32,533 nt of DNA, taken from assembly GCA_018830295.1 (NCBI GenBank), contig JAHJSM010000002.1, forward strand, positions 80,598-113,130, given 5' to 3'. The position numbers and the translations under genes are program-made. The notes beneath the pieces were generated by a model, which saw nothing but the letters and a program-made list of their open reading frames with translations, was not told the origin of the DNA and searched no databases. This stretch comes from Patescibacteria group bacterium. Its GTDB lineage: Bacteria; Patescibacteriota; Minisyncoccia; Portnoybacterales; UBA2143. Positions 5,782-30,955 of the stretch are shown here, in pieces (position 1 is the stretch's first letter; each line of letters starts with the position of its first letter).

Positions 5782-5793
5782 ATTATCTCACTT

Positions 5794-15084: not shown

Positions 15085-15143
15085 CCGGGGACAGTCCCCG
15101 CGGAGTTAAGACGGGGGCTGCCCCCGCAACGGGGGCAGCCCCC
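15085..15143. repeat. Composite GC-rich repeat (type B half + TTAAGAC linker + full type A hairpin)
   Basis: The sequence is CCGGGGACAGTCCCCGCGGAGTTAAGACGGGGGCTGCCCCCGCAACGGGGGCAGCCCCC. It closely matches 18337-18395. Confidence 0.9.
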
Positions 15144-15152
15144 ATGGGATTT

Positions 15153-15187
15153 AAAAAGTGTTCAACCTTCAGGGTTGAACACTTTTT
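15153..15187. terminator. Perfect bidirectional intrinsic-terminator hairpin (A5-GTGTTCAACC-TTCAG-GGTTGAACAC-T5)
   Basis: The 10-bp perfect stem is flanked by A5 and T5. The core is identical to the terminator after tRNA-Lys (30925-30949). Here it lies upstream of both flanking genes (corA and grpE diverge). Confidence 0.75.
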
Positions 15188-15284: not shown

Positions 15285-15319
15285 GGGGGGGCAGCCCCCT
15301 AAGACGGGGGACTGTCCCC
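15285..15319. repeat. GC-rich half-units (type A half GGGGGGGCAGCCCCC + TAAGAC + type B half GGGGGACTGTCCCC)
   Basis: These are the same building blocks and linker as 15085-15143 and 18337-18395, in a different arrangement. Confidence 0.8.
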
Positions 15320-15379: not shown

Positions 15380-15886
15380 ATGAATAAAAAAGAAAACGAA
15401 AAAGATACGACGGTATATATCAATGAGGACTTGGACGCGGAGGGACTTGGGGGGAAATTGAAGCGGTTGCGGAAGAAGTTGAAGGAATGTCAGAAGGAGA
15501 AGGAGGGGTATTTAAACCAGGCGCAGAGGGCTGGGGCTGATTTGATTAATTATCGGAGGCGACAGGAGGGGGCTTTGGAGGAGATTGTGAAGCGGGCAAG
15601 CGACGGTCTGATTCGGGAGTTGCTTCCTGTTTTGGATAGTTTAGAAATGGGCGCGCGGGAGAATGAAGGAGTTGGATTGATTAAGGAGCAGTTGGAGGCG
15701 GTTTTGGGAAAACGCGGAGTCAAGGCGATTGAGGCGGTTGGGGAAAAGTTTAATCCCGAACTGCACGAGGCGATTGAGCAGGTTGAGTCGGAAGAGGAAT
15801 CGGGGATTGTTGTTGAGGAAGTTCAAAAAGGATATTTTTTAGGAGAAAAAGTTTTGAGAGTAAGTCGAGTGAAGGTAGGGAAATAA
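15380..15886 (+). CDS. grpE: Nucleotide exchange factor GrpE
   Basis: 168 aa with an N-terminal coiled coil, an LINYRRRQE motif and a C-terminal beta-domain (GYFLGEKVLRVSRVKV). Confidence 0.92.
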   Translation: MNKKENEKDTTVYINEDLDAEGLGGKLKRLRKKLKECQKEKEGYLNQAQRAGADLINYRRRQEGALEEIVKRASDGLIRELLPVLDSLEMGARENEGVGLIKEQLEAVLGKRGVKAIEAVGEKFNPELHEAIEQVESEEESGIVVEEVQKGYFLGEKVLRVSRVKVGK

Positions 15887-15890
15887 ATAA

Positions 15891-15922
15891 GGGGGCTGCC
15901 CCCGTTGCGGGGGGCAGCCCCC
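15891..15922. repeat. GC-rich palindromic repeat, type A
   Basis: GGGGGCTGCCCCC-GTTGC-GGGGGGCAGCCCCC starts 4 nt after the grpE stop. No T-tract follows. Confidence 0.9.
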
Positions 15923-15939
15923 AATGTTAATTTATTTAG

Positions 15940-15968
15940 TTGGCAGTTAATTTTTCTAGGGTTATAAT
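15940..15968 (+). promoter_or_regulatory. Candidate sigma70-type promoter for hsp20-dnaK (TTGGCA-N17-TATAAT)
   Basis: TTGGCA lies at 15940-15945, followed by a 17-nt spacer and TATAAT at 15963-15968. Confidence 0.5.
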
Positions 15969-16006
15969 TTAACAGTAGAAAGAAAAGCCGTCAGCAATGC
16001 GTATTT

Positions 16007-16456
16007 ATGCCTATTAAATGGCAGCCATTTAAGGATTTTGAGAAGCCCGCGGATCTTCCAGAATTATTTGGAGGTGAGGAAAACGGAATGATGCCTTTTT
16101 TGCCTCAGATGCCTTTTCAATTGGAAGAGCCGTCGGTGGATATTTATCAGGACAAAAATAATCTCTATTTAGAGGTTTCTTTAGGCGGAATGAAGCCGGA
16201 GAATATTGATATTTCTATTGAGAATAATGTCTTAATTATTCAAGGCAAGAGCGAAGCGAAAGAAGAAATTAAAGAAAAGGATTATTTGCGGAAGGAGATT
16301 AGAAAAGGAGCATTTCGTAGAATGATTAAATTGCCCGCGCAGGTTTTGGAAAAGAAAGCGAGCGCGGAAGCTATCGGGGGATTGCTTAAGATCACAATGC
16401 CTAAGGCATCAAAGAAGGCGTCTCAAGCGAGTCAAGTGCCGATAAAAATAAAATAA
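16007..16456 (+). CDS. Hsp20/alpha-crystallin family small heat-shock protein
   Basis: The alpha-crystallin domain pattern runs VDIYQDKNNLYLEVSLGGMKPENIDISIENNVLIIQGK...FRRMIKLP...GLLKITMPK. Confidence 0.88.
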   Translation: MPIKWQPFKDFEKPADLPELFGGEENGMMPFLPQMPFQLEEPSVDIYQDKNNLYLEVSLGGMKPENIDISIENNVLIIQGKSEAKEEIKEKDYLRKEIRKGAFRRMIKLPAQVLEKKASAEAIGGLLKITMPKASKKASQASQVPIKIK

Positions 16457-16468
16457 TTTTTAAAAACT

Positions 16469-18328
16469 ATGAGTAAAATAATTGGTATTGATTTAGGGAC
16501 ATCTAATTCCGCCGCGGCGGTTGTTGAGGCGGGGAAGCCGGTGATTATTCCTTCAGCCGAGGGAACGATTGTCGGAGGCGGAAAGGCGTTTCCTTCTTAT
16601 GTCGCCATGACGAAAGATGGCGAACTTTTGGTGGGCGAGCCAGCGCGACGGCAAGCGGTGACCAATCCCGAAAACACGGCGAGCGCTTTTAAGCGCAAAA
16701 TGGGGACGAAGGAAAAGTATCTTTTGGGGGGCAAGGAATATACGCCCCAGCAGTTATCGGCTTTTGTTTTGCAGAAAATTAAAAAGGACGCGGAAAGGTT
16801 TTTGGGCGAGCCGGTGACAAAAGCCGTTATTACCGTTCCCGCCTATTTCAGCGACGCGCAAAGACAAGCGACTAAAGACGCGGGCGCGATCGCGGGACTG
16901 GAAGTGGTTCGCATTATTAACGAGCCGACCGCCGCTTCGCTCGCTTACGGCGTTGATAAAGCAGGCAAAGAAGAGAAAGCGCTTGTTTTTGATTTTGGAG
17001 GCGGAACTTTAGATATTACGATTTTGGAAATGTTCTCGGTTGACGAGGATGATGAAAAAGGCAAGACAAGCGGATTTGAGGTTAAATCAACTTCGGGCGA
17101 CACAGAACTAGGCGGAACAGATATGGATAAGGTTTTGTCGGATTACATTGTTGAGAAATTTAAAAAAGATAATGGCATTGATTTGAAACAAGACAAAACC
17201 GCCTTACAGAGAGTAATAGAGGCGGCGGAAAAAGCGAAGATTGAACTTTCTTCCACTTTAGAGACAGACCTTAATTTGCCTTTTTTGAGCGCTGGCGCCG
17301 AAGGACCAAAGCATTTAGTCATGAAAATTACGAGAGCGAAACTGGAAGAATTAATTAAGCCGATTGTTGAAAAATGTCGCAAGCCGATGGAGCAGGCGTT
17401 GAATGACGCGAAATTGACGCCGACCGATATTACGAAAGTTATTTTAGTCGGCGGACCGACAAGAATGCCGATTTTGCAAAAATTTGTTGAGGACTACATT
17501 GGAGGCAAAATTGAGAGAGGGGTTGACCCGATGGAGTGCGTCGCGATGGGCGCGGCGATTCAGGGCGCGGTTTTAGGCGGAGATATGAGGGAGATACAAC
17601 TATTAGATGTGACGCCTTTGACATTGGGGATTGAAACACTGGGCGGGGTTTTAACGCCTTTGATTGAACGAAACGCGACGATCCCGACTTCTAAAAGCCA
17701 GGTTTTTTCCACGGCGGCTGATAGTCAGCCAGCGGTGGATATTCATATTCTACAAGGCGAAAGACCAATGGCGGCGGATAACAGAACACTTGGACGATTT
17801 ATTTTAGACGGCATTCCGCCCGCGCCGAGGGGCGTTCCGCAGATTGAGGTTTCGTTTGATATTGACGCGAATGGAATTTTGAATGTCAAGGCGGCAGATA
17901 AGGCGACGGGTAAGGAGCAACATATTACGATTACGGATTCTTCGGCTTTGTCAAAGGAAGAAATTGAAAAAATGAAAATGGAAGCGGAAACGCACGCAGT
18001 TGATGACCGCAAAAAGAAAGAATTGATTGACGCGCGCAATCAAGCGGATACGCTTATTTCCTCAACGGAGAAGGCCTTGAAGGATTCGGGCGATAAGGTT
18101 AAAGAGGAAGACAGAAAAAATGTGGACGAAAAATTAGAGGCGCTCAAAAAAGCGAAAGACAGCGCGGCGATAGATGAATTAAAAAAAGCGATTGATGATT
18201 TGTCGCAGGAAATTCAAAAAATTGGCGCGCAATTGTATAAAGATGTTGAAAAAGAAAAAGCAGAGCAATCGGAACCGGAGATAAAAGATAAAACAGTGGA
18301 AGGGGAGTATGAAGAGGTGAAAGAGTAA
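16469..18328 (+). CDS. dnaK: Molecular chaperone DnaK (Hsp70)
   Basis: It has the [18 protein letters not shown] and [11 protein letters not shown] signatures and a C-terminal lid with an acidic tail. Confidence 0.97.
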
Positions 18329-18336
18329 TTATGACA

Positions 18337-18395
18337 GGGACAGTCCCCGTTGCGGGGTTAAGATGGGGGCTGCCCCCGCAACGGGGGCAGCCCCC
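18337..18395. repeat. Composite GC-rich repeat (type B half + GTTGC + TTAAGAT linker + full type A hairpin)
   Basis: The sequence is GGGACAGTCCCCGTTGCGGGGTTAAGATGGGGGCTGCCCCCGCAACGGGGGCAGCCCCC, starting 8 nt after the dnaK stop. Confidence 0.9.
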
Positions 18396-18482
18396 AAAAT
18401 TACCAAAAACCCTTGACAAAAATAGTATAATCTTGTTAAGATGCGATTGCCTGAGATACAGGCATTTTTTATTACAAAAAAT

Positions 18483-19169
18483 ATGAATTATAAGAAAGCG
18501 GGGAAAATTGTTTTAGGGAAAAAGTGGCTTGTTTTTTGGGCGACTATTTTGGGCGCTGTTTTGATTTTTGATTTAATGGTAATTCAAGCGCCGGATTATA
18601 AAGCTAATTCAAAAATTTTGGTTGTTCAAAAGCAAGTGGCGGGGCAGGATATTTATACGGTTTCTAAATCGGCGCAATATCTTGTTCGTATTTTGAAAGA
18701 GGGGATTTATTCAGATAGTTTTTTTGAAAAAGTTATTCAATTGCCTTATGGCGTAGATGAAGCGGATTTTCCGTCTAAGCCAAAAGAAAGGCGAAAAGAA
18801 TGGGAAAAAACCGTTCAGGCGATTATTGTCCGCGATTTAGGCGTGATGGAAATTAATGTTTTTTATCCTGAAAAAGAAAAAGCAGAACAGATTAGTCGCG
18901 CGATTACCGATGTTTTGTTAACGGAACATAATTTTTATCATGGTGGCGGAGATAATGTCGCGTTAAAGGTTTTGGATGAGCCGTTGGCGAGCGAAAGACC
19001 AATGACTCTTGGTTTATTGTTCGGCTCGGTTTTAGGCGCTTTAATTGGATTTTTAATCGGCGTTGGATGGGTTTTGAGGAAATGGTTAAGAGGTGAAGGA
19101 AGCGATGGGCGTTCGGGCGAGGGATTTACTTCTATTGGCGAGGAAATAGAGAAGAGAAGGGGAGAGTAA
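18483..19169 (+). CDS. Wzz/YveK-like polysaccharide chain-length determinant (PCP) family protein
   Basis: It has an N-terminal TM (WLVFWATILGAVLIFDLMV), a periplasmic-type domain, then a Pro-containing segment and Gly-rich C-terminal TM (PLASERPMTLGLLFGSVLGALIGFLIG) typical of Wzz/PCP. ATG 18483 is preferred, but the in-frame ATG 18441 remains possible. Confidence 0.7.
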   Translation: MNYKKAGKIVLGKKWLVFWATILGAVLIFDLMVIQAPDYKANSKILVVQKQVAGQDIYTVSKSAQYLVRILKEGIYSDSFFEKVIQLPYGVDEADFPSKPKERRKEWEKTVQAIIVRDLGVMEINVFYPEKEKAEQISRAITDVLLTEHNFYHGGGDNVALKVLDEPLASERPMTLGLLFGSVLGALIGFLIGVGWVLRKWLRGEGSDGRSGEGFTSIGEEIEKRRGE

Positions 19170-19181
19170 AAACACAAAGAC

Positions 19182-19212
19182 GGGGACAGTCCCTGTTGCG
19201 GGGACTGTCCCC
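19182..19212. repeat. GC-rich palindromic repeat, type B (GGGGACAGTCCC-TGTTGCG-GGGACTGTCCCC)
   Basis: The 12-bp stem starts 12 nt after the stop at 19167-19169. The loop contains the same GTTGC core as type A. Confidence 0.9.
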
Positions 19213-19337
19213 TCGGGGTTTGGAAATTTGCTTTTTGGGCGGAAAAAGGTTTTTGTCCAAAAAGGAGGTTTTGAAAGATCTTTGAAAATTAAATAATAAT
19301 TATAAACTGCCGTTTCGCGGCGAGAGGAAGGTGGAGA

Positions 19338-20168
19338 ATGAAAAGAATTACGATAGCAATGTTAGTATCGGTTTTTCTTTTTGCCGCTCTATTTGGATGC
19401 GGCGGTCGGCGATATATTATGGCGGAGAAGGACATTTCAAAGGATTTAGTTTTGCCTGAAGAGACGCCTTATTGCGTTATTTGGGCGGAGATTAATCCGA
19501 TTCTTGAAAGGTCGGAGCCGGGGAGGAATCATTATTTGCATTTTGAAAATGGCGATTCTTTTCTTGGGGCTCGGGTTTATGTTGGCAATCAAAAGAAGTT
19601 TATGATTGTCGCGCATAAATCTGAAATTGACCTTACTCAAAAAGCTGTCATTTCTTCCCGAAGCGGAAAGAGGTTTTATTCTCTTGATGGGAAAGAAATT
19701 TATAGCAAGGACGGATTTTTGGTTCCCGAATTTAATTGGGCGAAAATCGCGTCTTTAAAAGAAAGCGAGATTAAAATTTGGCAGAATATTTTGCCGGGGT
19801 CTGAAGAGGATAAAAATGTTCAGGCAATCTCGACTGGAATTGGGAAAGAGATGGATAGGCAATATCCAAATTTGTTTGAAAGGGCATTGTCTCGGGTGGC
19901 GAAAATTACCACAGAAGATATTGTTTTGGCCGGCGCGACTGATTTTACCAGTTTGTTTGGGATATTCGGAATTCGCGCCTGGGTTCTTGTTGAGGCGTTT
20001 GTTGAGAAAGCTGATTTGTCCTTGCCATATTATGATACGGCTTTGGTAAATCGTTTTCAGATGGCGCTGGAAGTAGCTCCTGTTTTTGTAAAAATAGATA
20101 ATGCCGTGGAGCAATATTACAAAGACAGGGCGCTATGGTGGAAATTGTATGGTGAGGATATGAAGTAA
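19338..20168 (+). CDS. Hypothetical lipoprotein
   Basis: It has a signal peptide with a lipobox-like LFGC (MKRITIAMLVSVFLFAALFGCGG) and a strong SD (GGAAGGTGGAG). I do not recognise the mature domain. Confidence 0.7.
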   Translation: MKRITIAMLVSVFLFAALFGCGGRRYIMAEKDISKDLVLPEETPYCVIWAEINPILERSEPGRNHYLHFENGDSFLGARVYVGNQKKFMIVAHKSEIDLTQKAVISSRSGKRFYSLDGKEIYSKDGFLVPEFNWAKIASLKESEIKIWQNILPGSEEDKNVQAISTGIGKEMDRQYPNLFERALSRVAKITTEDIVLAGATDFTSLFGIFGIRAWVLVEAFVEKADLSLPYYDTALVNRFQMALEVAPVFVKIDNAVEQYYKDRALWWKLYGEDMK

Positions 20169-20177
20169 TCCAGAAAA

Positions 20178-20214
20178 GATAGGGACAGTCCCCGCAACAG
20201 GGACTGTCCCTATC
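20178..20214. repeat. GC-rich palindromic repeat, type B, opposite orientation (loop CGCAACA)
   Basis: GATAGGGACAGTCCC-CGCAACA-GGGACTGTCCCTATC has a 15-bp stem and starts 9 nt after the stop at 20166-20168. Confidence 0.9.
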
Positions 20215-20248
20215 AAACTATTAAAACCATAAAAAGGAGGTGGGTGTT

Positions 20249-21754
20249 GTGAAAAAGTTTTTGTTTGCCGTAACAATAATGGCAATAATGGTTTTCGCGA
20301 ATCCTGCCTTTTCTTCGGATAAGAGCGGGGTTCATATCGTAAAAAAAGGTGATTCTATTTATAGAATTGCCACAAAAGTTTTCCATCTGAATTGGGGACA
20401 AGTTAGAACAGACGCGAAAAATAGGAATTTAATTTTTCCGGGTCAGAAAATTAGTTTATCTGATTTAATTGACGCGTCCGTTCTAAAAAAAGTTCGGATT
20501 GGAAGTAATCCCTTTAGGAGTAAAGGAATTAATCCGCTTTCGCAAAAGCAAATTGCTAAAGATAGAAGAGGATTGATTGAGATTTGCGGCTTGTCAGGAG
20601 CGGAAGCCGATAGAATTCTCGCGATTCACAAAAAATCTATTGCGGAAAAATCACAAGATGGTTTTAGGTGGGATTTAGTTGGCAATAAAGATAAGTTCGA
20701 CTTAATGCTTTTTGGCAATATGAAGGTTGTTTCCAACCTAATTGTTGTTGAAAAACTAAGCTTAAAGCATTCAGCCCGCGTTTATAGTATTAGCGGAAAA
20801 CAAATTTGGTATATCTTGCGCTGCGGGAATTGGGCAATTAGAGGGAAAAAAATTCCTCCGCCACCTGCGCCGCCTTTCGCCGATATGGGCGAATTAGAAA
20901 GGGCAATTGCTAAAATTCAACAACCTAAAGAATACAAGTGGGACTGGGATTCTACTTGGGGCGCGTTTGATGAAAGATATACCGACGGGAATAAAGTGAA
21001 GGGTTGGTGGCAATCCACGACTCTTTATCCTGTTGTTCTTGATGATGACGAAGGCAATGAGTGGGCTTTTGGGCTCAACTACACTACTCGCAATTGGAAG
21101 GGCAAAACAGGTGAAGAAGACCCATTTCGCTATAAAGGAGATGTGGATATTTGGTCTTTGGCCGGACGATTTCGAGATGATTCTCGCGATTGGGAAGCGA
21201 TTAGCCGCGTTGGTTTAGGCAATCGTAAGGACAAAGGATTTTTGGTTAACGAATACGGCCGCTACGATATGAAGCAGAAAACAGATATTTTAAATATCTA
21301 TAATTCTGTTGAGTATAGCGGACGGACTAACGAAAAATGGTTTAGCAAGACCCGCGGCTCAATGGAGTTGGAATTTGGCTATAATGAGAAAAAGGAAGAC
21401 CATTGGGAAGGGCAAGCGTTAGGCGGCGAGCCCGACGACAAAAACGCTTATAATATATCGTTATACAGTGACATATATAGTTTGAACCAAAAAAAGTCCG
21501 TCCAAATCTGGGCGGAAGGCAGGAGTACTTATTACGCCGAGCATTATAGGCTGGGTAATAGGATAGCGGGAGGATTATCTTTTTGGAATGGTTCCATTAA
21601 GGTAGGTCCCGGATATACACACTGGAATAGTAGTCATGCCGATTCAAAAGGGTGGTATGGCGAAGTGAGTTTATATAATCTCTATCACACAATTGTTGGT
21701 TATCCAGCAGGGGATGATTGGGATTTTGAGAAAGATATAGAAGAGGGATATTAA
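20249..21754 (+). CDS. Secreted LysM-domain protein with a large aromatic-rich beta-type C-terminal domain
   Basis: GTG 20249 is preceded by AAAGGAGG. The signal peptide is MKKFLFAVTIMAIMVFANPAFS and the LysM motif is HIVKKGDSIYRIATK...NLIFPGQKISL. A PPPPAPP linker leads to about 270 aa rich in W/Y/G/D/N, with alternating hydrophobic strands (EWAFGLNYTT, SMELEFGYNE, AYNISLYSDIYSL, GWYGEVSLYNLY). Confidence 0.75.
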   Translation: MKKFLFAVTIMAIMVFANPAFSSDKSGVHIVKKGDSIYRIATKVFHLNWGQVRTDAKNRNLIFPGQKISLSDLIDASVLKKVRIGSNPFRSKGINPLSQKQIAKDRRGLIEICGLSGAEADRILAIHKKSIAEKSQDGFRWDLVGNKDKFDLMLFGNMKVVSNLIVVEKLSLKHSARVYSISGKQIWYILRCGNWAIRGKKIPPPPAPPFADMGELERAIAKIQQPKEYKWDWDSTWGAFDERYTDGNKVKGWWQSTTLYPVVLDDDEGNEWAFGLNYTTRNWKGKTGEEDPFRYKGDVDIWSLAGRFRDDSRDWEAISRVGLGNRKDKGFLVNEYGRYDMKQKTDILNIYNSVEYSGRTNEKWFSKTRGSMELEFGYNEKKEDHWEGQALGGEPDDKNAYNISLYSDIYSLNQKKSVQIWAEGRSTYYAEHYRLGNRIAGGLSFWNGSIKVGPGYTHWNSSHADSKGWYGEVSLYNLYHTIVGYPAGDDWDFEKDIEEGY

Positions 21755-21780
21755 AAAATACTGAAAAGGAGGTAGGAGAG

Positions 21781-22440
21781 ATGAGAAATCTTATCAGATT
21801 AGGAATAGTGGCGTGCTTAATGTTTTTTTTAGTAAGTTGCGCTCATCAGAAAGATGATAGTTGGAAAGAAAACATTGCAGCCGATATGAAATCGGACATT
21901 AAAGAAGCAGACGACGCTTTCGCGAAAAAAGAAAAAGTGGAATCGTTGGTTCCTGTGTTTGAACTTTTGGATGGAGGGAAAATGATCAAAGTGACTTTTG
22001 AGGGATCTTATTTGGTTCCTAAGAATGACACAAAAGCGCCTCCATTTGAACCATCGAGAATTCGTTTAGTTTCTCTTTTTAAAGAAAGAGGCGGATATAA
22101 AACAAAGTTTTTCTCCGAAGTTAAAGTGGCTAATGGCACGGCTGTTATAACCATTCCCAATCCGGCGCTAAGGTTCGGAGAGCCATTTGTTGATGGATGG
22201 TGGGGGATGGGAATAAGCGTTAAGAACGAACTGGGTTATTTAATGATTAACCCAGACAATAATTTTACGGCTTATAAAACCACTATCTTCAATAAGGCCG
22301 ATATTAACACATTGTTGATTTGCCCGGTCTTTTACAAAGACAAAGTAAGACCATTGAAGGAAGTTCTGGCGGAAAAAAAGATTAAAATGGATGATTTTAT
22401 TTCTGCTAATAGGTGGGGCTATTGTCCCGAATTGAAATAA
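21781..22440 (+). CDS. Hypothetical lipoprotein
   Basis: It has a signal peptide with lipobox LVSC (MRNLIRLGIVACLMFFLVSCAHQ) and a strong SD (AAAGGAGGTAGGAG). It starts 26 nt after the LysM gene, so the two are probably co-transcribed. Confidence 0.7.
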   Translation: MRNLIRLGIVACLMFFLVSCAHQKDDSWKENIAADMKSDIKEADDAFAKKEKVESLVPVFELLDGGKMIKVTFEGSYLVPKNDTKAPPFEPSRIRLVSLFKERGGYKTKFFSEVKVANGTAVITIPNPALRFGEPFVDGWWGMGISVKNELGYLMINPDNNFTAYKTTIFNKADINTLLICPVFYKDKVRPLKEVLAEKKIKMDDFISANRWGYCPELK

Positions 22441-22451
22441 CAACAAACAAA

Positions 22452-22481
22452 CCCTTGTGTTGAGGAACGCAAGGGTTTTTT
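22452..22481 (+). terminator. Intrinsic terminator between convergent genes
   Basis: The CCCTTG/CAAGGG stem (22452-57 / 22470-75) has a 12-nt loop and is followed by TTTTTT. The T-run overlaps the stop of the minus-strand gene. Confidence 0.55.
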
Positions 22482-23706
22482 ATTTGGCTTGCTTGAGCCA
22501 GGCGGCTATTAGTATCCAGAGGTTCCATTGGAGGGCAGTTGTCCGCAGAATGTTGTCAAAGAATCCGGCGGCGAATAAACTTAGGCAGATGGTGAAAATT
22601 CCCAAGGCCATAATTTTTTCTTTTCCAACGGATTTTATAAACTTTTTTAAGAGATAAAATAACGAGGCGGAGATAAGCCATAAATAGGCGGCTAATCCTA
22701 AGGCGCCGTTTTCAACGAATATTTTTAAGTAATCGTTGTGCGCCTCTAAACTGCCCCATTGAAACCCGCGGTAATATTCAACCAATCGTTCAAATGTTCC
22801 GCTTCCGTATCCGAACCAAGGTTGCCAGAGGGAGACAGGAATAATATCTTGCCAAAGACGCAAGCGCCAGATGACTGAGCCGTAAGGGTCTAAAGAAATT
22901 AGTTCCCAAAGCCGTTGCTGGAAAACATCGGAAAAAAAGTAAAGCAGAATAAAAAACAAAGCGCCAGCAAGAAGTAATTTTCTGTATTTAAAGATGCCAA
23001 AAATTAAAACAAAAAACATCAAGCAAGCAAGCGCGCTGCGAGTATATGTCGCTAAAAGCAAAACAGTTAGAACAACAGCGGAAATAAGAAAAATGGCGTT
23101 GGGCTTTTTTTTATTTGCTAAAATTAAACTGATAATTATCCCTAAGATGAAGAAAGTGTAGAAGGCGAAGAGGTTGGGATGCGCGAATGTGCCGTAAATT
23201 CTATTAAAACCGCCGAAATCGTCGGGTAATCCGAATCCGCCAATGAGTTGGATGGTGGCGAAAATCGCGGGCGGGATATAGCTGATTAAAATAATTTTTA
23301 AGAGCAAGAACCAATCTTTTTTACTATTGACTAATTTGTAAGCGATAAAATAGAGAAAGAAAATGCTGGATAATCGGATAAATTCTCTGGCGCTGGCTGT
23401 TTGGTCTAATGAATAAAAAATGCTCAAAAAAATTAGTCCTAGAAAAGCGGAAATAGGGTAAAAGAGAGGGGCTGAAATGATAGATTTCAAGTTTTTTAGG
23501 ATAAAAAACAGGGAGATAATAAAAACGATGCTGCCGATAATGGCGTTGAGATTGAAGGATGGCAGGGTGTAATAAATACTAAATTCTTTTTGACCAAGAA
23601 TATCCAAAGATGGTCGCAGGAGCGTTAAAGAGAGCAAAAAATAAAATAGTTTTTTACCCGTTTTAGGGTTGACTTTTTCTGTGTTTTTTGGTAGAGTATG
23701 GGGCAT
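22480..23706 (-). CDS. O-antigen ligase / Wzy_C family polytopic membrane protein
   Basis: 408 aa with about 10-12 TM segments. It has a YTRSALACLMFF segment and a C-terminal loop (GYGSGTFE...EAHNDYLKIFVENGALGL) characteristic of the Wzy_C / O-antigen ligase domain. Confidence 0.8.
   Translation of the reverse strand: MPHTLPKNTEKVNPKTGKKLFYFLLSLTLLRPSLDILGQKEFSIYYTLPSFNLNAIIGSIVFIISLFFILKNLKSIISAPLFYPISAFLGLIFLSIFYSLDQTASAREFIRLSSIFFLYFIAYKLVNSKKDWFLLLKIILISYIPPAIFATIQLIGGFGLPDDFGGFNRIYGTFAHPNLFAFYTFFILGIIISLILANKKKPNAIFLISAVVLTVLLLATYTRSALACLMFFVLIFGIFKYRKLLLAGALFFILLYFFSDVFQQRLWELISLDPYGSVIWRLRLWQDIIPVSLWQPWFGYGSGTFERLVEYYRGFQWGSLEAHNDYLKIFVENGALGLAAYLWLISASLFYLLKKFIKSVGKEKIMALGIFTICLSLFAAGFFDNILRTTALQWNLWILIAAWLKQAK
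23669..23697 (+). promoter_or_regulatory. Candidate promoter for the radical SAM gene (TTGACT-N17-TGgTAGAGT), embedded in the divergent gene's 5' coding region
   Basis: TTGACT lies at 23669-74, followed by a 17-nt spacer ending in TGG and TAGAGT at 23692-97. ATG 23707 is 9 nt downstream. Confidence 0.5.
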
Positions 23707-24786
23707 ATGTTCAATTTTAATAAAAACTTATCTTCTGATATTAAGGACGCTGTTTTGGCGGTGACTTATCAATGTAATAGTTGCTGTCAATTTTGCTATA
23801 TTTGGCAGAGTCGAGAAACATTTTCTTGTCAGCCCTCTGATTATGAAAATTTACCACGAAATCTTGAGAGCGTCAATATTAGCGGAGGCGAACCGTTTTT
23901 GAGGCCTGATTTGCCCGAAATTGTCAGGGTCATCAGCCGTCGATGTCCTCAAGCCAAAATTATTATTTCCACCAATGGGTTTTTGCCCAGTATTATTAAA
24001 AAAAGAATGACGGAAATTATTAAATTCAAGAGAGATATTGGCGTAGCGGTTTCTTTGGATGGATTTGGAAAGGTTCACGAGGAATTAAGGGGATTTCCCG
24101 GCGGTTTTAGTTTGGCCTTGGAAACGATACGGCTTTTGAAAGAATTAGGCTTAAAGGATTTGAAGATCGCTTTTACTTTGAATAATGAGAATATAAATCA
24201 ATTAAAAAGGGTCTATCAATTGAGCGGAGAATTAGGCGTTGAGTTTAGTTTGGCAGCTTGTCATAATTCTTCCCATTATTTTCAAATAGAGAATAATAAA
24301 ATTGGCAAAATTGCAACGGTTAAAAAAGAAATTAATTGGCTTATAGAGCAGGAATTAAAAAAGTTTTCGTTGAAGCGATGGGCAAGAGCGTATTTCGCTT
24401 GGGGACTTATCAAATTTTTGGAGGAAAAACAAAGGGTCTTGCCTGATTATTCGGGGCTGGCGTCGGTTTTTATTGACCCCTTTGGCAATATTTATCCTTC
24501 GGATGTTTGGGATTTGAAAATAGGGCGATTGGAAGAAGTCGGGGATTGGGATGAATTTGCCAAAGGAACGCAAGGATTAGTTTCTTTTGGAGAGAAGCCA
24601 GTTAACTGGATGGTTTGTACGGCGAGGCAGGCGGTAAAAAGGCATCCGTTTCGGGTTGGATGGTGGGTTTTAAAGAAAATAGTAAAACGGTTAAGATGGG
24701 GGCAGTCTCTAAAATTAAAAACGGGGACAGTCCCTCGCGGCGAGGGACTGTCCCCTCTAAGATATGAAAATTCTTCAAATAAATAA
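23707..24786 (+). CDS. Radical SAM domain protein
   Basis: It has CNSCCQFC (CxxxCxxC) near the N-terminus, a GGEPFL SAM-binding motif, and a TIM-barrel-like alternation. ATG 23707 is preferred over 23698. The last 30 or so codons are a translated GC-rich repeat. Confidence 0.82.
   Translation: MFNFNKNLSSDIKDAVLAVTYQCNSCCQFCYIWQSRETFSCQPSDYENLPRNLESVNISGGEPFLRPDLPEIVRVISRRCPQAKIIISTNGFLPSIIKKRMTEIIKFKRDIGVAVSLDGFGKVHEELRGFPGGFSLALETIRLLKELGLKDLKIAFTLNNENINQLKRVYQLSGELGVEFSLAACHNSSHYFQIENNKIGKIATVKKEINWLIEQELKKFSLKRWARAYFAWGLIKFLEEKQRVLPDYSGLASVFIDPFGNIYPSDVWDLKIGRLEEVGDWDEFAKGTQGLVSFGEKPVNWMVCTARQAVKRHPFRVGWWVLKKIVKRLRWGQSLKLKTGTVPRGEGLSPLRYENSSNK
24723..24755. repeat. GC-rich palindromic repeat, type B variant (15-bp stem, loop CGG), inside the radical SAM ORF 3' end
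   Basis: The sequence is GGGGACAGTCCCTCG-CGG-CGAGGGACTGTCCCC. It is preceded by a degenerate TTAAGATGGGGGCAGTCTC at 24691-24709 and ends 8 nt before the next ATG (24764). Confidence 0.9.
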
Positions 24787-25963
24787 ATTTTTCTTTTTGA
24801 AAGGGGGAGCGGAGCGGTATTTTTTTGATTTGGCGGAATTGCTTTCGGCGGAGGGGGAGCGGGTTTCGGTTTGGAGCGCGCGGCATCCTCTGGATTTTTC
24901 TAAAAGAGAAGGATTTTTGAAGGATTTTAAAAAAGTTAGGCGGATTTTTTGGAATAGGGATGCGGTTAAAAAATTAGAAAAGGTAATTGAGCGAGAAAAA
25001 CCAGATGTCGCTCATTTGCACAATATTTTTGGGCATTTTTCTCCTTCTATTATTTTTGCTTTAAAAAAACGCGGGATACCGATTGTCATGACACTGCATG
25101 ATTATAAGTTTTTTTGCCCTAATTATAAGTTTTTTACGCGAGGCAAGGTTTGTTTTGATTGTCTCAAAAAAAGAAATTATCGCGCTTGTTTTTATAAAAA
25201 ATGCGTTCATAATTCGCGGATAAAAAGTTTCTTAGGGTATTTGGAAGGGAAATGGCAGAGAGATTTTTTGAAGGCCGCCCATAAAATAGATATGTTTTTA
25301 GCGCCGAGTTTGTTTATTAAAGAAAAGGCGTTGGAATGGGGGATTCCTTTTGATAAAATTATTCACCTGCCAAATTTTATTACTATTGACAATTTAGAAA
25401 AAATTAGGCAGAATAAGGACGAAAAATACATCTTGTATTTTGGGCGATTAAGCGAAGAGAAAGGAATTGCTCTTTTAATTAAAGCGTTTCTGAAGGCGGT
25501 TGACAAAGAAGCAAATGGCTGGAAGTTAAAAATAGCTGGCGACGGTCCAGAAGAAGAGAATTTAAGGAAGATAGCTAAGAACGAGGATGGCGTGGAATTT
25601 TTAGGACGATTAAATAGTGAGGCGCTGAAAGAAAAGATTTTTAACGCGCGGTTGGTGGTTGTTCCTTCTCTTTGGCCGGAAAATTTTCCGTACAGCGTTT
25701 TAGAAAGCTTCGCTTTGGGTAAGACGGTTTTAGCCGCCAAGATTGGGGGATTGCCAGAAATGATTGAAAATGGTAAAACAGGATTGCTTTTTGAGGCGGG
25801 CGATAAAAATGATTTGGCGGAAAAAATCCTTTGGGCGATGAGTCAGCCAGAGAAAATAAAGAAAATAGGAGAAAATGCGCGGGAAGAGGCTTTGAAAAAG
25901 TATGGCTCGGAGGGGCATTATAAGAAATTAAAACGGGTTTATGAACGAATTAAGAATGACTAA
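24764..25963 (+). CDS. Glycosyltransferase family 4 (GT-B, GT1/GT4-type)
   Basis: It has the N-terminal MKILQINKFFFLKGGAERYFFDL typical of GT4, and a C-terminal E-x7-E region (ENFPYSVLESFALGKTVLAAKIGGLPEMIENGKTGLLF). Confidence 0.88.
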   Translation: MKILQINKFFFLKGGAERYFFDLAELLSAEGERVSVWSARHPLDFSKREGFLKDFKKVRRIFWNRDAVKKLEKVIEREKPDVAHLHNIFGHFSPSIIFALKKRGIPIVMTLHDYKFFCPNYKFFTRGKVCFDCLKKRNYRACFYKKCVHNSRIKSFLGYLEGKWQRDFLKAAHKIDMFLAPSLFIKEKALEWGIPFDKIIHLPNFITIDNLEKIRQNKDEKYILYFGRLSEEKGIALLIKAFLKAVDKEANGWKLKIAGDGPEEENLRKIAKNEDGVEFLGRLNSEALKEKIFNARLVVVPSLWPENFPYSVLESFALGKTVLAAKIGGLPEMIENGKTGLLFEAGDKNDLAEKILWAMSQPEKIKKIGENAREEALKKYGSEGHYKKLKRVYERIKND

Positions 25964-27269
25964 AATTATCGCGGCGGTTTGTTTGGTCCTTGTCGTGACA
26001 GGAAGTTTTATGCTGTGGCAAAATGGTTGGATTGAAGGAAGCATCCAAAAGATAGAACAGATTTCTTTTTTGAAAATACTTCCTAAATTGGCTGGCTTTG
26101 GCGAGGAGAGAAATTATCTTTTGCTTTTTCAAAATAATTTGGAATTAAGGCCAAGCGGAGGGTATTTGGGCGCTTTTGGAATTATTAAAATAAAGAACGC
26201 GGGAGTGGTTTCTTTTGAAATGCACGATACAAATATTTTTGACGGATTTGGCAAAGTTCAAACAGAGCCGCCTCAACCGATGAAAGAACATTTAGGCATT
26301 AGCAATTGGCAAATGAGGGATGGTAATTGGTCTCCTGATTGGCCGACGGCGGCGCGGCAGGTTGAATATTTTTATCGCCTTCAAGGCGGAACGGAGAATT
26401 TTGACGGGGTCATCGCGCTTAACGCGTCTGTTTTGCCTGATTTAATGGAATTAATTGGTCCGGCTTATTTAGAGGAATTTGATAAAGAATTTGTTGCGGA
26501 GACGGTTCTTTATGATTTGGAATACGAAACCGAGAGGGGTTATCTTGAAAGGGGGATTGACGCGGGTGAAAGAAAAACGGTTTATAAAGCGTTGGTTAAG
26601 AATGTTTTAGGGGGGATAACAGAAAATAATTTTTGGCAAAAGAACGATTTAAGAGGATTGGTTATGAACGAATTGGCTGAAAAAAATATTCTTTTGTTTT
26701 TTAAAGACGAGAAAGAGCAAGAAGTGGTTGACGAACTTGGATGGAGCGGACGGGTTGACCAGTCGCATTCAGGCGATTATTTAATGATTGTTGAAGCGAA
26801 TTTAGGCGCGAGAAAAAGCAACGCTTTTGTGACGAGGGAAGTGGAATATTTAGTTGATTTTTCAAAGGACGCGCCTATGGCTAATTTGAAAATTAAATTT
26901 ACGCATATAGGCGGAGAAAAAGATTGGTTTAACCATGACTATCAAGTTTATTTAAGAATTTACGCGCCGTATAAGAGTTGGCTTTTGGCTGCTTACGGAA
27001 CCGAGGACGAGACAGAATTTTTAGATGAATTTGGCAAAACGGTTTTTGGCAATTGGATTATTATTCCGTCGGGCGAAACAAAAACTGTTGAATTTTCTTA
27101 TCTCTTGCCATCGCGATTGAAAGACGAAACGGATTATCAGATTTTGGTTCAAAAGCAATCGGGGATTAACAGCTTACCCCTTAAGTTTATTTTCAAGGAA
27201 GGCGAACGCGAAGAAGTTGAAGAAAACATTATTAAGAACGACTGGGAGGGAGTTATTGAAAGAAAATGA
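25941..27269 (+). CDS. DUF4012-like membrane-anchored extracytoplasmic protein
   Basis: It has an N-terminal TM followed by YLLLFQNNLELRPSGGYLGAFGII, NW..DWP and DGVIALNASVL segments that I recall as the DUF4012 signature. The alternative start ATG 25956 overlaps the GT4 stop (ATGACTAA). Confidence 0.7.
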   Translation: MNELRMTKIIAAVCLVLVVTGSFMLWQNGWIEGSIQKIEQISFLKILPKLAGFGEERNYLLLFQNNLELRPSGGYLGAFGIIKIKNAGVVSFEMHDTNIFDGFGKVQTEPPQPMKEHLGISNWQMRDGNWSPDWPTAARQVEYFYRLQGGTENFDGVIALNASVLPDLMELIGPAYLEEFDKEFVAETVLYDLEYETERGYLERGIDAGERKTVYKALVKNVLGGITENNFWQKNDLRGLVMNELAEKNILLFFKDEKEQEVVDELGWSGRVDQSHSGDYLMIVEANLGARKSNAFVTREVEYLVDFSKDAPMANLKIKFTHIGGEKDWFNHDYQVYLRIYAPYKSWLLAAYGTEDETEFLDEFGKTVFGNWIIIPSGETKTVEFSYLLPSRLKDETDYQILVQKQSGINSLPLKFIFKEGEREEVEENIIKNDWEGVIERK

Positions 27270-28372
27270 AGATAGCAATGATTGGGCAAAAAGGAATACC
27301 AACTCTTTTTGGGGGAATAGAGCGGCATGTCGAGAAAATTTCTTGTTCTTTAGCGCGGGAAAAAAATCGCGAGGTTTTTGTTTACGCGCGCTCTTATTAC
27401 ACGCCTAAGAAAACTAAAAAATTTAAGGGGGTAAATATTATTCATTTGCCCAGTATTCAGACAAAGCATTTGGACGCGATTAGCCATATCTTTTTAGCGA
27501 GTTGGCACGCTATTTTTAAAATTAGAGCAGATGTCATTCACTACCATGGCGTTGGTCCGGCTTTATGTCTTTGGATCCCAAAACTTTTTAAGCCGAGCGC
27601 GAAGGTGGTTTTTACTCTTCATTGCCACGATTATTTTCATAAAAAATGGGGAAGCGCGGCTCGGTTTTTCTTGCGTTTTGGAGAAATGATTGGATGTTTA
27701 TTGGCGGACGAGGTGATCGCGGTTTCCGAAGAAATTCAGGAATATATCGCGAAGACATATAAGAGGAAAAGTTCTTTTATTCCCCACGGGGTTGACGAGG
27801 AAGAGAAAATACCCGCTGATTTAATTGTGAGAAAATGGGGACTGAAAAAGGATGGATATATTTTGGCGGTGAGCCGTTTAATTCCTCATAAGGGCATTCA
27901 TTATTTAATTGATGCTTATCAAAAAATTAAGACGGATAAAAAATTGGTTATCGTCGGTCCTTCTTTTTATACGCGCGATTACAAGAACGAACTTGCGCAA
28001 AGAGCCAAAAATGATACGCGGATTATTTTTTTGGATGCCCAGCAAGGAAAAATTTTGAAAGAACTTTTCAGCAACGCTTGTTTGTTTATCAACCCTTCAG
28101 AACAAGAGGGTTTGCCTGTGACGGTTTTAGAAGCGGCGAGTTTTGGTGTTCCGATTCTGCTTTCGGATATTAAAATTCATAAAAAAATGCTTGGGGATAA
28201 TGTTTTTCTTTTTAGGAATAAAAGTGTTAAGAACCTCGCGGAAGAAATGGAGAAAATTTTAGGGGAACAAAAAACGCCCCTTAAAAAATCTCGTCAAGCG
28301 AAAAATTATCTTAAAAACAATTACGACAGTTGGGCGGGAATTGTGGAGAAAACTGTTTTGAAGTATATTTGA
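27266..28372 (+). CDS. Glycosyltransferase family 4 with a DUF1972-like N-terminus
   Basis: MKIAMIGQKGIPTLFGGIERHVEKIS resembles the DUF1972-type GT4 N-domain. The C-terminal NPSEQEGLPVTVLEAASFGVPILLSD is a GT-B motif. ATGA start/stop overlap at 27266-27269. Confidence 0.85.
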   Translation: MKIAMIGQKGIPTLFGGIERHVEKISCSLAREKNREVFVYARSYYTPKKTKKFKGVNIIHLPSIQTKHLDAISHIFLASWHAIFKIRADVIHYHGVGPALCLWIPKLFKPSAKVVFTLHCHDYFHKKWGSAARFFLRFGEMIGCLLADEVIAVSEEIQEYIAKTYKRKSSFIPHGVDEEEKIPADLIVRKWGLKKDGYILAVSRLIPHKGIHYLIDAYQKIKTDKKLVIVGPSFYTRDYKNELAQRAKNDTRIIFLDAQQGKILKELFSNACLFINPSEQEGLPVTVLEAASFGVPILLSDIKIHKKMLGDNVFLFRNKSVKNLAEEMEKILGEQKTPLKKSRQAKNYLKNNYDSWAGIVEKTVLKYI

Positions 28373-28386
28373 TTTTGTGGTATAGT
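28358..28386 (+). promoter_or_regulatory. Candidate promoter (TTGAAG-N17-TGgTATAGT) 6 nt upstream of ATG 28393
   Basis: TTGAAG lies at 28358-63 and TATAGT at 28381-86, preceded by TGG. It sits in the last codons of the GT4 gene. Confidence 0.45.
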
Positions 28387-28392
28387 GGCGGT

Positions 28393-29154
28393 ATGGATAA
28401 GAATCGCATGGTTCAATCAGTTATTGTGGGTTTAGCCGCCGTCATCGCCGCCGCTAGTTGGGCGGGGTTGAAGGGTTTTTTGTTTGAGGGCGGAAATTGG
28501 ATTTTTCCAAGCGTTGGTTTTTTGGTTTTATTGGTTTTTTTGTCTTTAAATTGCTTGTTGACCAAATCAAAAATTAATCTTTTCATTACTCTTACTTTTG
28601 TTTTGGTTAGCTTTTTGTTTGCTTTTGGAATTAATTTAAGTTATTTGGCTGTTTTAATTGTCGCGCTTTTACTGTTTTCTTTTGGGTTCGCGCGCGCGAT
28701 TAACGAAAAAGAAAATAGGATTAAAATTCAAATAGGTAAAATTCTTCGGAAAGGACTGCCTTCGGTTTTAACAGGTCTCGCTTTAATTATTGCCGCTGTC
28801 TATTATTTCTCTCCTTTGGCGGCGCAGTGGCAGGGCAAAATTGAAATTCCTCGTCCTTTATTTGACGCGATTTCTCAACCAATGATTGATAGCGCTTCTT
28901 TAGGCAGCAGCGAAGAAATTGGCGATATGATTTATGATTCGGTTAATCAGAGTGTTAACAAATATAGCCAAAATTATGAAGAGTATATTCCTTTTGGATT
29001 AGCGGTCGGAGTTTTTTTCACGGTGAAAGCGCTAGGTATTGTTTTAATATGGTTAGTCATACTTTTAAGCGCCGCGATTTTTAAAATTTTGGTTTCTTTC
29101 GGCGCGGTTAAAATACACGAGAAGGCGGTTTTGCAGGAAGTAATGGAAACATAA
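28393..29154 (+). CDS. Hypothetical polytopic membrane protein
   Basis: 253 aa from ATG 28393 with about 6 predicted TM segments. I recognise no family. The ORF-track start at 28330 would overlap the GT4 gene. Confidence 0.6.
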
Positions 29155-29156: not shown

Positions 29157-30245
29157 ATGGATTATTATAAAATATTGGGGGTTGAGAAGAGCGCTTCGGA
29201 GGATGAAATTAAAAGGGCATACAGAAAATTGGCTCTTAAATATCATCCCGACCGCGCTTCGGAGGATAAGAAAAAAGAATACGAAAAAAAATTTAAAGAG
29301 GTGAGCCAAGCGTATGGCGCTTTGTCTGATAAAAACAAAAGGGCGCAATACGACCAATACGGGCAGACATTTAATGGCGGAGGATTTGGGCAAGGTCAGG
29401 GATTTTCTGGACAGGATTTTAGCCATTTTTACGATGTTTTTGGTGGGCAGGATAATTTTGAGGACTTGGGATTTAGTAGAATTTTTGAACAGGCGTTTGG
29501 CGCCAGGCGGGGGGCGAGGCAAAGGGCGGAATACGGGCAGGACATCGCTTTGGATATGGAAATAGATTTAGAAGAGGCGTTTCGGGGCGTTAAGAAAGAG
29601 GCGGATTTGCGGAAGATGGTTCTTTGCGCGAAGTGCGGCGGAAAGGGAGGAGAGTCGTTAAAAAAATGTCCAGTTTGCCAAGGAAGCGGATATGAGCAAG
29701 TAAGAGGCGGGGGATTGTTGAGTATGTTTATTCAACAGAGACCTTGCTCGCGATGCCACGGACGAGGCGAGGCGCCGGAGAAAATTTGTTCCGAATGCCG
29801 TGGACAGGGAAGAGTTAAGGAAATAAAAAAAGTTAAAATTGCCGTTCCTGAAGGAATTGACGGGGGGCAGGTTTTGAAAATGTCGGGGCAGGGAGAAGCG
29901 GGACCTTATGGCGGACCAGCGGGGGATTTGTTTGTTAATATTCATATTCGCCCGCATAAATATTTTAAGCGACAGGGGAATATTTTGATTTTTGATTTGG
30001 ATATAAACTTTACGCAAGCGGCTTTGGGAGATAAAATAGAGATACCGACTTTAGATGGCAATGTTAAATTAAAAATACCAGCGGGAATTCAGCCGGGGGA
30101 ATTGATACGATTAAAAGGAAAGGGGATGCCGCGTCTTCATGGCGGAGGGCATGGCGATATGATAATTAAAGTTCAGGTTAAGGTTCCTAAAAAAATGTCT
30201 TGGAAGCAGAAAAAGGTTATTAAAGAATTAGGGGAGATTATTTAA
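29157..30245 (+). CDS. dnaJ: Molecular chaperone DnaJ (type I)
   Basis: It has a J domain with HPD (YHPDR), a G/F-rich linker, four CxxCxGxG zinc-finger repeats ([32 protein letters not shown]) and C-terminal substrate-binding domains. Confidence 0.96.
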
Positions 30246-30910: not shown

Positions 30911-30919
30911 CTTTCTAAC

Positions 30920-30955
30920 AAAAGGTGTTCAACCTTCAGGGTTGAACACTTTTTT
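30920..30955 (+). terminator. Intrinsic terminator after tRNA-Lys (same hairpin as 15153-15187)
   Basis: The sequence is AAAAG-GTGTTCAACC-TTCAG-GGTTGAACAC-TTTTTT. Confidence 0.8.

Follow-up and report, generated by a model that had tools for sequence, protein, structure and literature searches.

The stretch analysed here, 32,533 nt of contig JAHJSM010000002.1 (hereafter the window), carries three consecutive plus-strand genes (19338-22440) inside a glycan locus. They encode a lipoprotein (lp1), an exported protein in which an N-terminal LysM domain is joined to a predicted 12-stranded β-barrel of the outer-membrane protein (OMP) type (the LysM-barrel protein), and a second lipoprotein (lp2). 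This trio is a real, conserved and previously undescribed module: a barrel tether or pore of the OMP type, met in a lineage and a context where none was expected. What goes beyond fold and synteny we infer, and the family does not extend beyond a small group of Patescibacteria. The trio and its parts are as follows.

19338..20168, plus strand: lipoprotein lp1, 276 aa
20249..21754, plus strand: LysM-barrel protein, 501 aa
20249-20314, plus strand: signal peptide of the middle protein, ending ANPAFS
20333-20458, plus strand: LysM domain, residues 32-73 (Pfam, 22.5 bits against a cut-off of 20.9)
20486-20839, plus strand: alpha/beta middle domain, between LysM and hinge
20855-20875, plus strand: PPPPAPP hinge, residues 206-212, from the sequence
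20942-21670, plus strand: predicted C-terminal 12-stranded OMP-type β-barrel domain, residues 235-477 (AlphaFold2)
21671-21697, plus strand: conserved LYNLYH helix, followed by an acidic tail
21781..22440, plus strand: lipoprotein lp2, 219 aa

The predicted barrel and its neighbouring lipoproteins

The listed open reading frame (ORF) of the middle gene starts at GTG 20240. Because the Shine-Dalgarno core GGAGG occupies 20236-20240, GTG 20249 is the likely start, and it yields a product of 501 aa that is identical to the cluster representative P0001. Counted from there, the features that a first-pass annotation of this DNA had described for the middle protein, namely its length, the ANPAFS signal peptide, the LysM motif and the PPPPAPP linker, are all present where it had placed them. 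The LysM domain scores above the gathering cut-off of PF01476, and the profile matches the LysM-bearing PDB chains LytE and SafA. The hinge differs in length among homologues, as expected of a spacer. Apart from the signal peptide, a hydrophobicity scan of the protein detected no helical transmembrane segment. The barrel domain is composed of 11.5% glycine, 7% tyrosine and 5.8% tryptophan, with no cysteine. The tail that follows it is acidic and 27 residues long; in homologues it is variable, of low complexity and up to ~130 residues.

The LysM-barrel protein was modelled with AlphaFold2 from a 15-sequence alignment. The best model has a mean predicted local distance difference test score (pLDDT) of 77.8 with disordered linkers, and the means of the five models range from 70 to 78. 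Residues 235-477 are predicted to form 12 consecutive antiparallel strands of 9-23 residues each, joined by short turns, at a pLDDT of about 85-96; the last strand (residues 469-477) runs directly into the conserved helix. When the barrel model was compared with the PDB using Foldseek, 62 matches were obtained at E<=1e-3, and the best 50 of these 62 were all transmembrane β-barrel proteins, nearly all from bacterial outer membranes. At the top stood 12-stranded autotransporter translocators (Hbp 3aeh at E=1.7e-7, NalP, AIDA-I, BrkA, EspP and EstA), the BrkA match having a target-normalised TM-score of 0.60 and a root-mean-square deviation (rmsd) of 5.9 over 259 columns. OmpG, OpcA, FadL and the polysaccharide porins PgaA (4y25) and PelBC (9h80) ranked lower. 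Against the viral structures of BFVD, autotransporter and OMP barrels again came out on top.

The two faces of the predicted strands differ sharply. In the window protein, one face carries a single charged residue among 68 and is rich in V, I, L, F, W, Y, A and G, whereas 26 of the 74 residues on the opposite face are charged. Nine homologues show the same division (0-2 charged of 68, and 22-26 of 74), and many residues of the charged face are invariant (E319, R323, R329, D331, E358, K370, R372, E376, E426, R428, K454 and E475). As a control, residues were shuffled 5000 times within strands and the best parity per strand was chosen anew each time; 3 of 71 residues on the apolar face were charged as observed, against 8.0 +/- 1.6 in the shuffles, and the observed value was reached in just 15 of the 5000. 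Furthermore, in five tight hairpins (strands 5/6, 8/9, 9/10, 10/11 and 11/12) the apolar residues of neighbouring strands pair in register, giving, on AlphaFold2 strand boundaries and alignment columns, a belt of ~9 apolar residues with Trp and Tyr at its rims, e.g., W318-Y359 and Y404-Y431. Strands 5-7 project past the belt as a charged protrusion. With a radius of ~11 Angstrom, a 12-stranded barrel has too wide an interior for a hydrophobic core to fill, and an outward-pointing apolar face is therefore most likely.

The prediction thus fits the closed, even-stranded antiparallel form of OMP-type barrels (12 strands, with matches to membrane barrels), as well as their apolar girdle with aromatic rims and polar interior, the outward orientation being deduced from barrel geometry. 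The first-pass annotation had taken alternating hydrophobic and polar stretches as a sign of a β-barrel or β-sandwich. All five peptides that it quoted lie within residues 274-482, and the barrel-type pattern gains support, in that a barrel topology is predicted at high confidence and only outer-membrane-type barrels occur among the Foldseek matches listed. The prediction could nevertheless be an artefact, the true structure being another all-β fold (a sandwich, solenoid or open meander) that serves as a soluble glycan- or wall-binding domain. The 15-sequence alignment, a whole-chain predicted TM-score (pTM) of 0.52 and the large Foldseek rmsd values would allow for this. However, pLDDT is about 90 over all 12 strands of the best model, the five models have similar means, only closed membrane barrels are found among the best 50 of 62 PDB matches and among the significant BFVD matches, and the strict dyad pattern with its conserved charged face is hard to reconcile with a sandwich. 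We therefore consider an artefact improbable.

Both flanking proteins were expected to be lipoproteins, and the lipoboxes LFGC and LVSC are indeed present. The signal peptide of lp1 begins MKRITIAMLVSVFLFAALFGC and ends in LFGC; its Cys21 shows a conservation of at least 90% across 21 homologues, among which TGC, SGC and SAC are seen. The F at position -2 of the lp1 lipobox is atypical; LVSC of lp2 (Cys20) is canonical. Both proteins agree with the definition of a lipoprotein by lipobox ([LVI][ASTVI][GAS]C), conserved Cys and an Lgt in the genome, and their lipidation is predicted on these grounds. Some lp2 analogues have a plain signal peptide in place of the lipobox.

The lp1 family comprises 26 homologous clusters, all source-named ones being from Patescibacteria/Parcubacteria, and its alignment has 35 invariant columns. 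In the AlphaFold2 model, residues 45-151 form an N-terminal β domain (pLDDT about 90). The most conserved segment is residues 177-244 (nt 19866-20069), with the motif AKITTEDIVLAGATDF..LFGIFG.R.W....ADLSLPYYDTA; it is left unplaced in the monomer at a pLDDT below 50 and contains a borderline-hydrophobic stretch (residues 204-222, Kyte-Doolittle 1.58). Since high conservation here goes with no confident monomer fold, the segment probably folds only against a partner, namely the barrel, or against a membrane. As for lp2, it evolves fast, is β-rich by sequence and usually carries the C-terminal motif PEL. Only 3 close clusters were found; the positional analogues in three relatives' loci (L001, L003 and L004) are ~30% identical (E=1e-12 to 2e-19), and a profile of lp2 analogues matches the gene that follows the barrel in L006, L008, L009 and L016, with a weak match in L017.

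Gene neighbourhood and distribution

The surroundings of the trio in the window are listed below; the loci L001-L022 mentioned in this section are those of relatives, which were compared with the window locus. PCP stands for polysaccharide co-polymerase and GT4 for a family of glycosyltransferases.

18441..19169, plus strand: Wzz/PCP-like chain-length-determinant protein, small, with two transmembrane helices and without a kinase domain
19183..19211, no strand: GC-rich palindromic intergenic repeat GGGACAGTCCC-N7-GGGACTGTCCC, from a repeat search
19271..19300, plus strand: candidate sigma-70-like promoter TTGAAA-18-AATAAT upstream of lp1, from a consensus scan (10/12 matches)
20182..20210, no strand: another copy of this palindromic repeat, in the gap that separates lp1 from the barrel gene, from a repeat search
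22449..22478, plus strand: intrinsic-terminator-like hairpin followed by a T-run, which closes the trio and is common to the convergent Wzy_C gene
22480..23706, minus strand: Wzy_C (O-antigen ligase/polymerase family) membrane protein, convergent with the trio (Pfam E=1.1e-17)
23698-24786, plus strand: radical SAM protein, glycan locus
24764-25963, plus strand: first GT4, glycan locus
25941-27269, plus strand: DUF4012 protein, glycan locus
27266-28372, plus strand: second GT4, glycan locus
28330-29154, plus strand: TgpA_N-like membrane protein, glycan locus (dnaJ starts at 29157)
5749-6516, plus strand: lgt, prolipoprotein diacylglyceryl transferase (Pfam LGT E=1e-42)

The first-pass annotation had set the trio between a Wzz-like and a Wzy_C gene and had noted lgt in the same window. 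Both statements hold, the Wzy_C gene lying on the minus strand and the Wzz assignment being weak (Pfam E=2.7e-4, below the cut-off; NCBIfam polys_exp_MPA1 at E=1.4e-6). The transmembrane windows of the Wzz-like protein are residues 30-48 and 190-208. Lgt is the enzyme required for the lipidation of lipoproteins such as lp1 and lp2. The supposition that the host is a bacterium of the candidate phyla radiation (CPR) also proved correct, near-identical DnaK, DUF4012, lp1 and lp2 proteins having been deposited as Candidatus Portnoybacteria or Patescibacteria. The two palindromic repeats listed pair with 100% complementarity and flank lp1, and the first has a terminator-like score on the minus strand. 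The promoter candidate is a consensus match only, and such sites are no commoner in the region than in shuffles.

The gene order is retained far beyond close relatives. In the latter (46-73% identity), it reads CorA(-), GrpE, HSP20, DnaK, Wzz, in some cases a protein with LysM and a transmembrane (TM) helix, lp1, barrel, lp2, Wzy_C(-), radical SAM, GT4, DUF4012 and GT4, with DnaJ after the locus in the window and in L021. Near barrel members that are only ~25% identical, the order PCP(Wzz), lp1 where present, barrel, lp2, Wzy_C, radical SAM and GT4 is still kept. Around distant barrels (profile E=1e-9 to 1e-32), PCP(GNVR/Wzz), lipoprotein, barrel, lp2-like gene, Wzy_C(-), radical SAM and GT4 are retained in L012, L014, L016, L017, L021 and L022; in such loci the outer flanks may differ while the core set stays. 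In most of the full-length loci compared, the PCP-like gene immediately precedes the module; upstream Wzz/GNVR genes were seen in L001-L005, L016, L017, L021 and L022. Wzy_C occurs wherever a locus extends far enough to include its position, and the downstream glycan genes, from radical SAM onward, follow in the same order in L001-L005, L017 and L021. By hidden Markov model (HMM), lp1 was found in L001-L009 and L014; the upstream lipoproteins of L010, L016 and L017 may be divergent forms of it, their collinear hhalign alignment with it having a probability of only 37% (E=3.5e-4). The barrel is thus linked most tightly to the genes for PCP, the lp2-like protein and Wzy_C, with lp1 being common, not universal. 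Adjacency of the three genes in relatives, which the first-pass annotation had made a test of its reading, thus extends to very distant ones, with the refinement that lp1 is absent in L022.

Some loci have an extra gene between Wzz and lp1 that is absent from the window (L001 4588-5151; L003 4215-4931; L004 2953-4461; L021 9199-9978). Its product starts with LysM and has a single TM helix; on the cytoplasmic side it carries a Cys/His motif, CPIC...H..KH, similar to a small zinc finger. This protein is fused in frame to lp1 in L004 and L005 as a 502-aa product, a fusion that ties the wall-binding and lipoprotein parts together. At a larger scale, the glycan/barrel locus (~11 kb of envelope genes) is nested in a chaperone cluster, with grpE-hsp20-dnaK at 15380-18328 and dnaJ at 29157-30245. 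The nesting recurs in L021, and the grpE-hsp20-dnaK flank also in L001-L003.

The first-pass annotation had recognised no family for either lipoprotein or for the C-terminal domain, and the searches bear this out. None of the three matched a Pfam, NCBIfam or PHROGs family, LysM being the only domain of the trio that did, and profiles of all three families run against PDB sequences returned LysM chains or nothing significant. No Foldseek match to the lp1 model was found at E<=0.001. Nor did these searches give a confident match to a soluble enzyme family, such as a glycoside hydrolase or an amidase, for the C-terminal domain or either lipoprotein. A phage origin was rejected, with no PHROG matches and only generic OMP barrels among the BFVD matches. 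An exhaustive HMM search with the barrel profile against 1.84 billion representative proteins yielded 46 clusters at E<=1e-3; it is a better census than a scan of the genome collection by one peptide pattern, which returned 4 loci only. When 44 members of the barrel family were scanned with Pfam, LysM was present in 29 (best E=1.7e-21) and GH113 in 1, and no OMP, autotransporter or IAT_beta model matched at E<=0.01. The members whose source is named all come from Patescibacteria, bar one on a contig binned as Candidatus Electrothrix. Judged by sequence, the barrel is a new family, rare and apparently restricted to CPR. Literature searches for a LysM barrel, or for any OMP, in CPR/Parcubacteria returned no description.

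The exception, P0083 (L013 2991-5261; 756 aa), is the most divergent homologue and has an N-terminal GH113 domain in place of LysM. Its gene lies between murD and murG/murC on an 8-kb contig whose deposit names Candidatus Electrothrix (cable bacteria). Either this contig comes from CPR and was mis-binned, or the homologue may be a genuine non-CPR member.

Proposed role and comparison with known systems

In diderm bacteria, the PCP cooperates with an outer export protein. We propose that the trio forms a CPR-specific, peptidoglycan-tethered complex around an OMP-type barrel, which would provide a Wzy-type glycan pathway with its outer conduit or anchor, and we give this statement as a whole about an even chance; its structural part, as modelled, merits more confidence than the rest. 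In this scheme, the LysM-barrel protein would be exported by Sec, LysM would bind peptidoglycan, and the proline-rich hinge of variable length would join it to a 12-stranded barrel with an apolar girdle outside and a charged lumen. The Lgt-dependent lipoproteins lp1 and lp2 would be partners of the barrel, and the undecaprenyl-linked glycan of the locus would be exported or displayed via this wall-tethered barrel as distal conduit or anchor. The barrel would then be the functional counterpart of the outer-membrane polysaccharide export (OPX) protein, or of the β-barrel porin, that partners PCP in diderms.

We assign the barrel, lp1 and lp2 to the distal end of the pathway on account of their unbroken linkage to PCP, Wzy_C and glycosyltransferases and, once (L022, where UppS and PAP2 lie directly upstream of the barrel), to undecaprenyl-phosphate metabolism. 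The logic of a tether or pore, as in OmpA, OmpM and intimin, comes from the wall-binding module, the variable hinge and the apolar-girdled barrel. We infer that the barrel sits in a membrane, in which lipid layer it does so, that it contacts lp1 and lp2, and that it takes part in glycan export. It might reside in an unrecognised outer layer that contains lipid, on the outer side of the cytoplasmic membrane, within a proteinaceous lattice or in a host membrane. A role as a new envelope, attachment or export module, which the first-pass annotation had suggested, would be consistent with all the findings.

Several points weigh against our proposal. First, CPR are regarded as monoderm, with the outer membrane and its machinery lost, so that an OMP-type barrel would sit in a lineage with no known outer membrane (PMC6744442, PMC10160955). 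Second, the barrel has no canonical C-terminal β-signal, its last strand being followed by the conserved helix and a tail of 27 to ~130 residues. Third, barrel closure and the outward apolar face are deduced from Foldseek matches and geometry; the model, with a whole-chain pTM of 0.52, was built on a shallow alignment of 15 sequences, and most Foldseek TM-scores are modest (0.25-0.6, target-normalised) with high rmsd. Fourth, the locus shows neither a Wzx flippase nor an initiating transferase, L022 has no gene in the position of lp1, and the family amounts to 46 clusters. Given this rarity and the missing lp1 of L022, the barrel is not a general component of the CPR envelope.

Among the nearest architectures are the OmpA and OmpM/SlpA tethers, functional analogues without sequence relationship, which, like the LysM-barrel protein, combine a barrel, a flexible or proline-rich spacer and a wall-binding domain in one polypeptide that bridges the wall and a hydrophobic layer. 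In OmpM the wall-binding domain is N-terminal and the barrel C-terminal, as here. However, OmpA and OmpM bind the wall by OmpA_C or SLH domains and have 8 or >=16 strands, whereas the window protein has LysM, 12 strands and an extra alpha/beta domain. Furthermore, no outer membrane is known in the lineage of the window protein. In Terrabacteria, to which CPR belong, tethering is the task of OmpM-type proteins (PMC10160955).

In an unlikely alternative, the barrel is not embedded in a membrane but belongs to a wall-associated structural or lattice protein (cf. S-layers and the Thermotoga toga), its girdle being buried in protein contacts, through oligomerisation or lp1 helices, or binding the lipid or undecaprenyl moiety of a glycolipid. 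No outer membrane is known in CPR (PMC6744442), and in Thermotoga a sheath made mostly of protein, the toga, consists of β-barrel proteins with SLH and LysM tethers (PMC10160955). The unplaced, conserved hydrophobic segment of lp1 could cover the girdle. On the other hand, a rare and lineage-restricted family is unlike a main envelope lattice, and a girdle of ~9 residues with aromatic rims is what lipid-embedded barrels have.

Polysaccharide export systems (Wza-type OPX; PgaA, AlgE, BcsC and PelB, with the lipoproteins PelC, AlgK and PgaB) share with the trio PCP/Wzz and glycan neighbours and the pairing of a barrel with cognate lipoproteins; the pairs PelBC, PgaAB and AlgEK are functional analogues. 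However, the barrels of PgaA, AlgE, BcsC and PelB have 16-18 strands and that of Wza is α-helical, as opposed to the 12 β-strands predicted here; these systems span a true periplasm and an outer membrane, and have no sequence similarity to the trio. No Pfam match to Poly_export (PF02563)/SLBB or TPR was found in the trio or in the 44 family members, the PCP pairing being the only one of these hallmarks in common.

The closest architecture is that of the inverse autotransporters (type Ve; intimin, invasin and YeeJ; IAT_beta, PF11924), which have the same order of signal peptide, LysM and 12-stranded barrel, and we confirmed the architecture of LysM plus barrel on the E. coli sequences of intimin and YeeJ. 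In both groups a helix follows the last strand, the position of the pore-filling linker. Barrel-only inverse autotransporters with very short C-terminal extensions, and co-encoded downstream partners (ZirTSU), are known (PMC4943183). Homology was nevertheless rejected: hhalign of the barrel profile against the barrels of intimin, YeeJ and YchO gave a probability of 0.5%, and, as a positive control, these three proteins match IAT_beta at E=6e-91 to 8e-114. Nor is there a C-terminal passenger of the Big/Ig-like kind, the window protein having only its 27-residue acidic tail. Inverse autotransporters are standalone adhesin genes, whereas the window barrel lies in a glycan locus with two lipoproteins, in a host considered monoderm and without a β-barrel assembly machinery (BAM). 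The classical autotransporters (type Va; Hbp, NalP, BrkA and EspP) are the best structural matches and also have 12 strands, but their passenger and pore helix are N-terminal to the barrel, where the window protein has LysM and a small alpha/beta domain. No Pfam match to their barrel (PF03797) was found in the trio or the 44 members, and nothing in these proteins resembles a passenger.

The same facts bear on whether the trio might be a type V-like device, akin to inverse autotransporters or ZirTSU, whose barrel translocates or displays its own C-terminal tail or lp2. The intimin/YeeJ order of LysM then 12-stranded barrel, the autotransporter barrels at the top of the structural matches, a conserved helix where inverse autotransporters carry their pore-filling linker and the precedent of barrel-only members with co-encoded substrates (PMC4943183) speak for it. 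We rate it very unlikely, however, since no relationship to IAT_beta appears either with hhalign or with Pfam among the 44 members, the short tail is no passenger and is variable and of low complexity in homologues, lp2 is itself predicted to be lipid-anchored, and such a device would require BAM or the translocation and assembly module (TAM) as well as an outer membrane.

As a further alternative, the trio could serve an episymbiont as a pore or attachment device aimed at its host, with the barrel in the host membrane and LysM on symbiont or host peptidoglycan, making an uptake or adhesion junction. CPR are thought to be host-dependent and enriched in proteins of cell-cell interaction (PMC6744442); an exported barrel without a cognate membrane of its own needs a target, and a hinge of variable length suits the bridging of a gap. 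Yet the strict linkage to PCP, Wzy_C and glycosyltransferases favours a cell-autonomous glycan function, and a stable monomeric 12-strand barrel is unlike the oligomeric barrels of pore-forming toxins. Such a device thus appears to us a long shot.

Returning to our proposal of a wall-tethered barrel in a glycan pathway, its boldest form would be that a subclade of Patescibacteria makes a true lipid-embedded OMP-type barrel without BAM, tethered by LysM and served by two dedicated lipoproteins. We hold this to be rather doubtful. If true, it would imply an unseen outer lipid layer, a β-barrel in the cytoplasmic membrane, or a barrel in the membrane of a host; and an outer lipid layer, if it exists, would either survive from the diderm ancestors of Terrabacteria or have been invented independently.

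Much of bacterial diversity belongs to CPR/Patescibacteria, yet their envelopes are almost unknown, since they are uncultured and only a few cryo-EM studies have shown them. Current models of envelope evolution treat CPR as a lineage that lost the outer membrane. The module offers a testable handle on what lies beyond the CPR wall, on how glycans pass through the wall or are fixed to it, and on whether β-barrels can be assembled without BAM. In addition, the barrel domain, lp1 and lp2 each represent a new protein family, and the locus, recognisable by its nine genes, can be used in the annotation of CPR genomes.

Other sequence features of the window

The repeats flanking lp1 belong to a GC-rich palindromic family with members at 5750-5782, 15113-15145, 15287-15319, 15891-15923, 18335-18397, 19183-19211, 20182-20210 and 24693-24755. 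They take the form GGGGGCTGCCCCC-GTTGC-GGGGGCAGCCCCC or the variant GGGACAGTCCC-N7-GGGACTGTCCC, each arm being nearly self-complementary, and stand directly after stop codons in a genome that is otherwise ~42% GC. The radical SAM ORF extends at its 3' end through two adjoining copies, and two others bracket lp1. These repeats could be elements of the repetitive extragenic palindromic (REP) kind, or terminators.

Two AT-rich intergenic blocks, 3015-3170 between the genes of a penicillin-binding protein (PBP) and a Mur ligase and 11676-11860 between rmuC and rplU, are built of AATTTTCAATTT-type units. Each contains an inverted repeat of 56-59 nt with a spacer of 39-63 nt, and the blocks are 76-86% identical to each other. 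GC skew is strongly positive across the window (0.06-0.43 in every 1-kb bin), and most long ORFs lie on the plus strand; the bins of lowest skew, 13-14 kb and 22-23 kb, are under minus-strand genes.

A tRNA-Glu(CTC) gene (4487-4559) lies inside the 5' part of a 131-aa ORF (4438-4833) whose only match is a weak one to EF-Tu domain 2; the listed start of this ORF is therefore probably wrong. A tRNA-Lys(TTT) gene occupies 30838-30911. The perfect hairpin AAAAAGTGTTCAACCTTCAGGGTTGAACACTTTTT occurs in two copies, 97% identical, at 15153-15187 after the corA region and at 30920-30954 after tRNA-Lys; both are likely bidirectional terminators.

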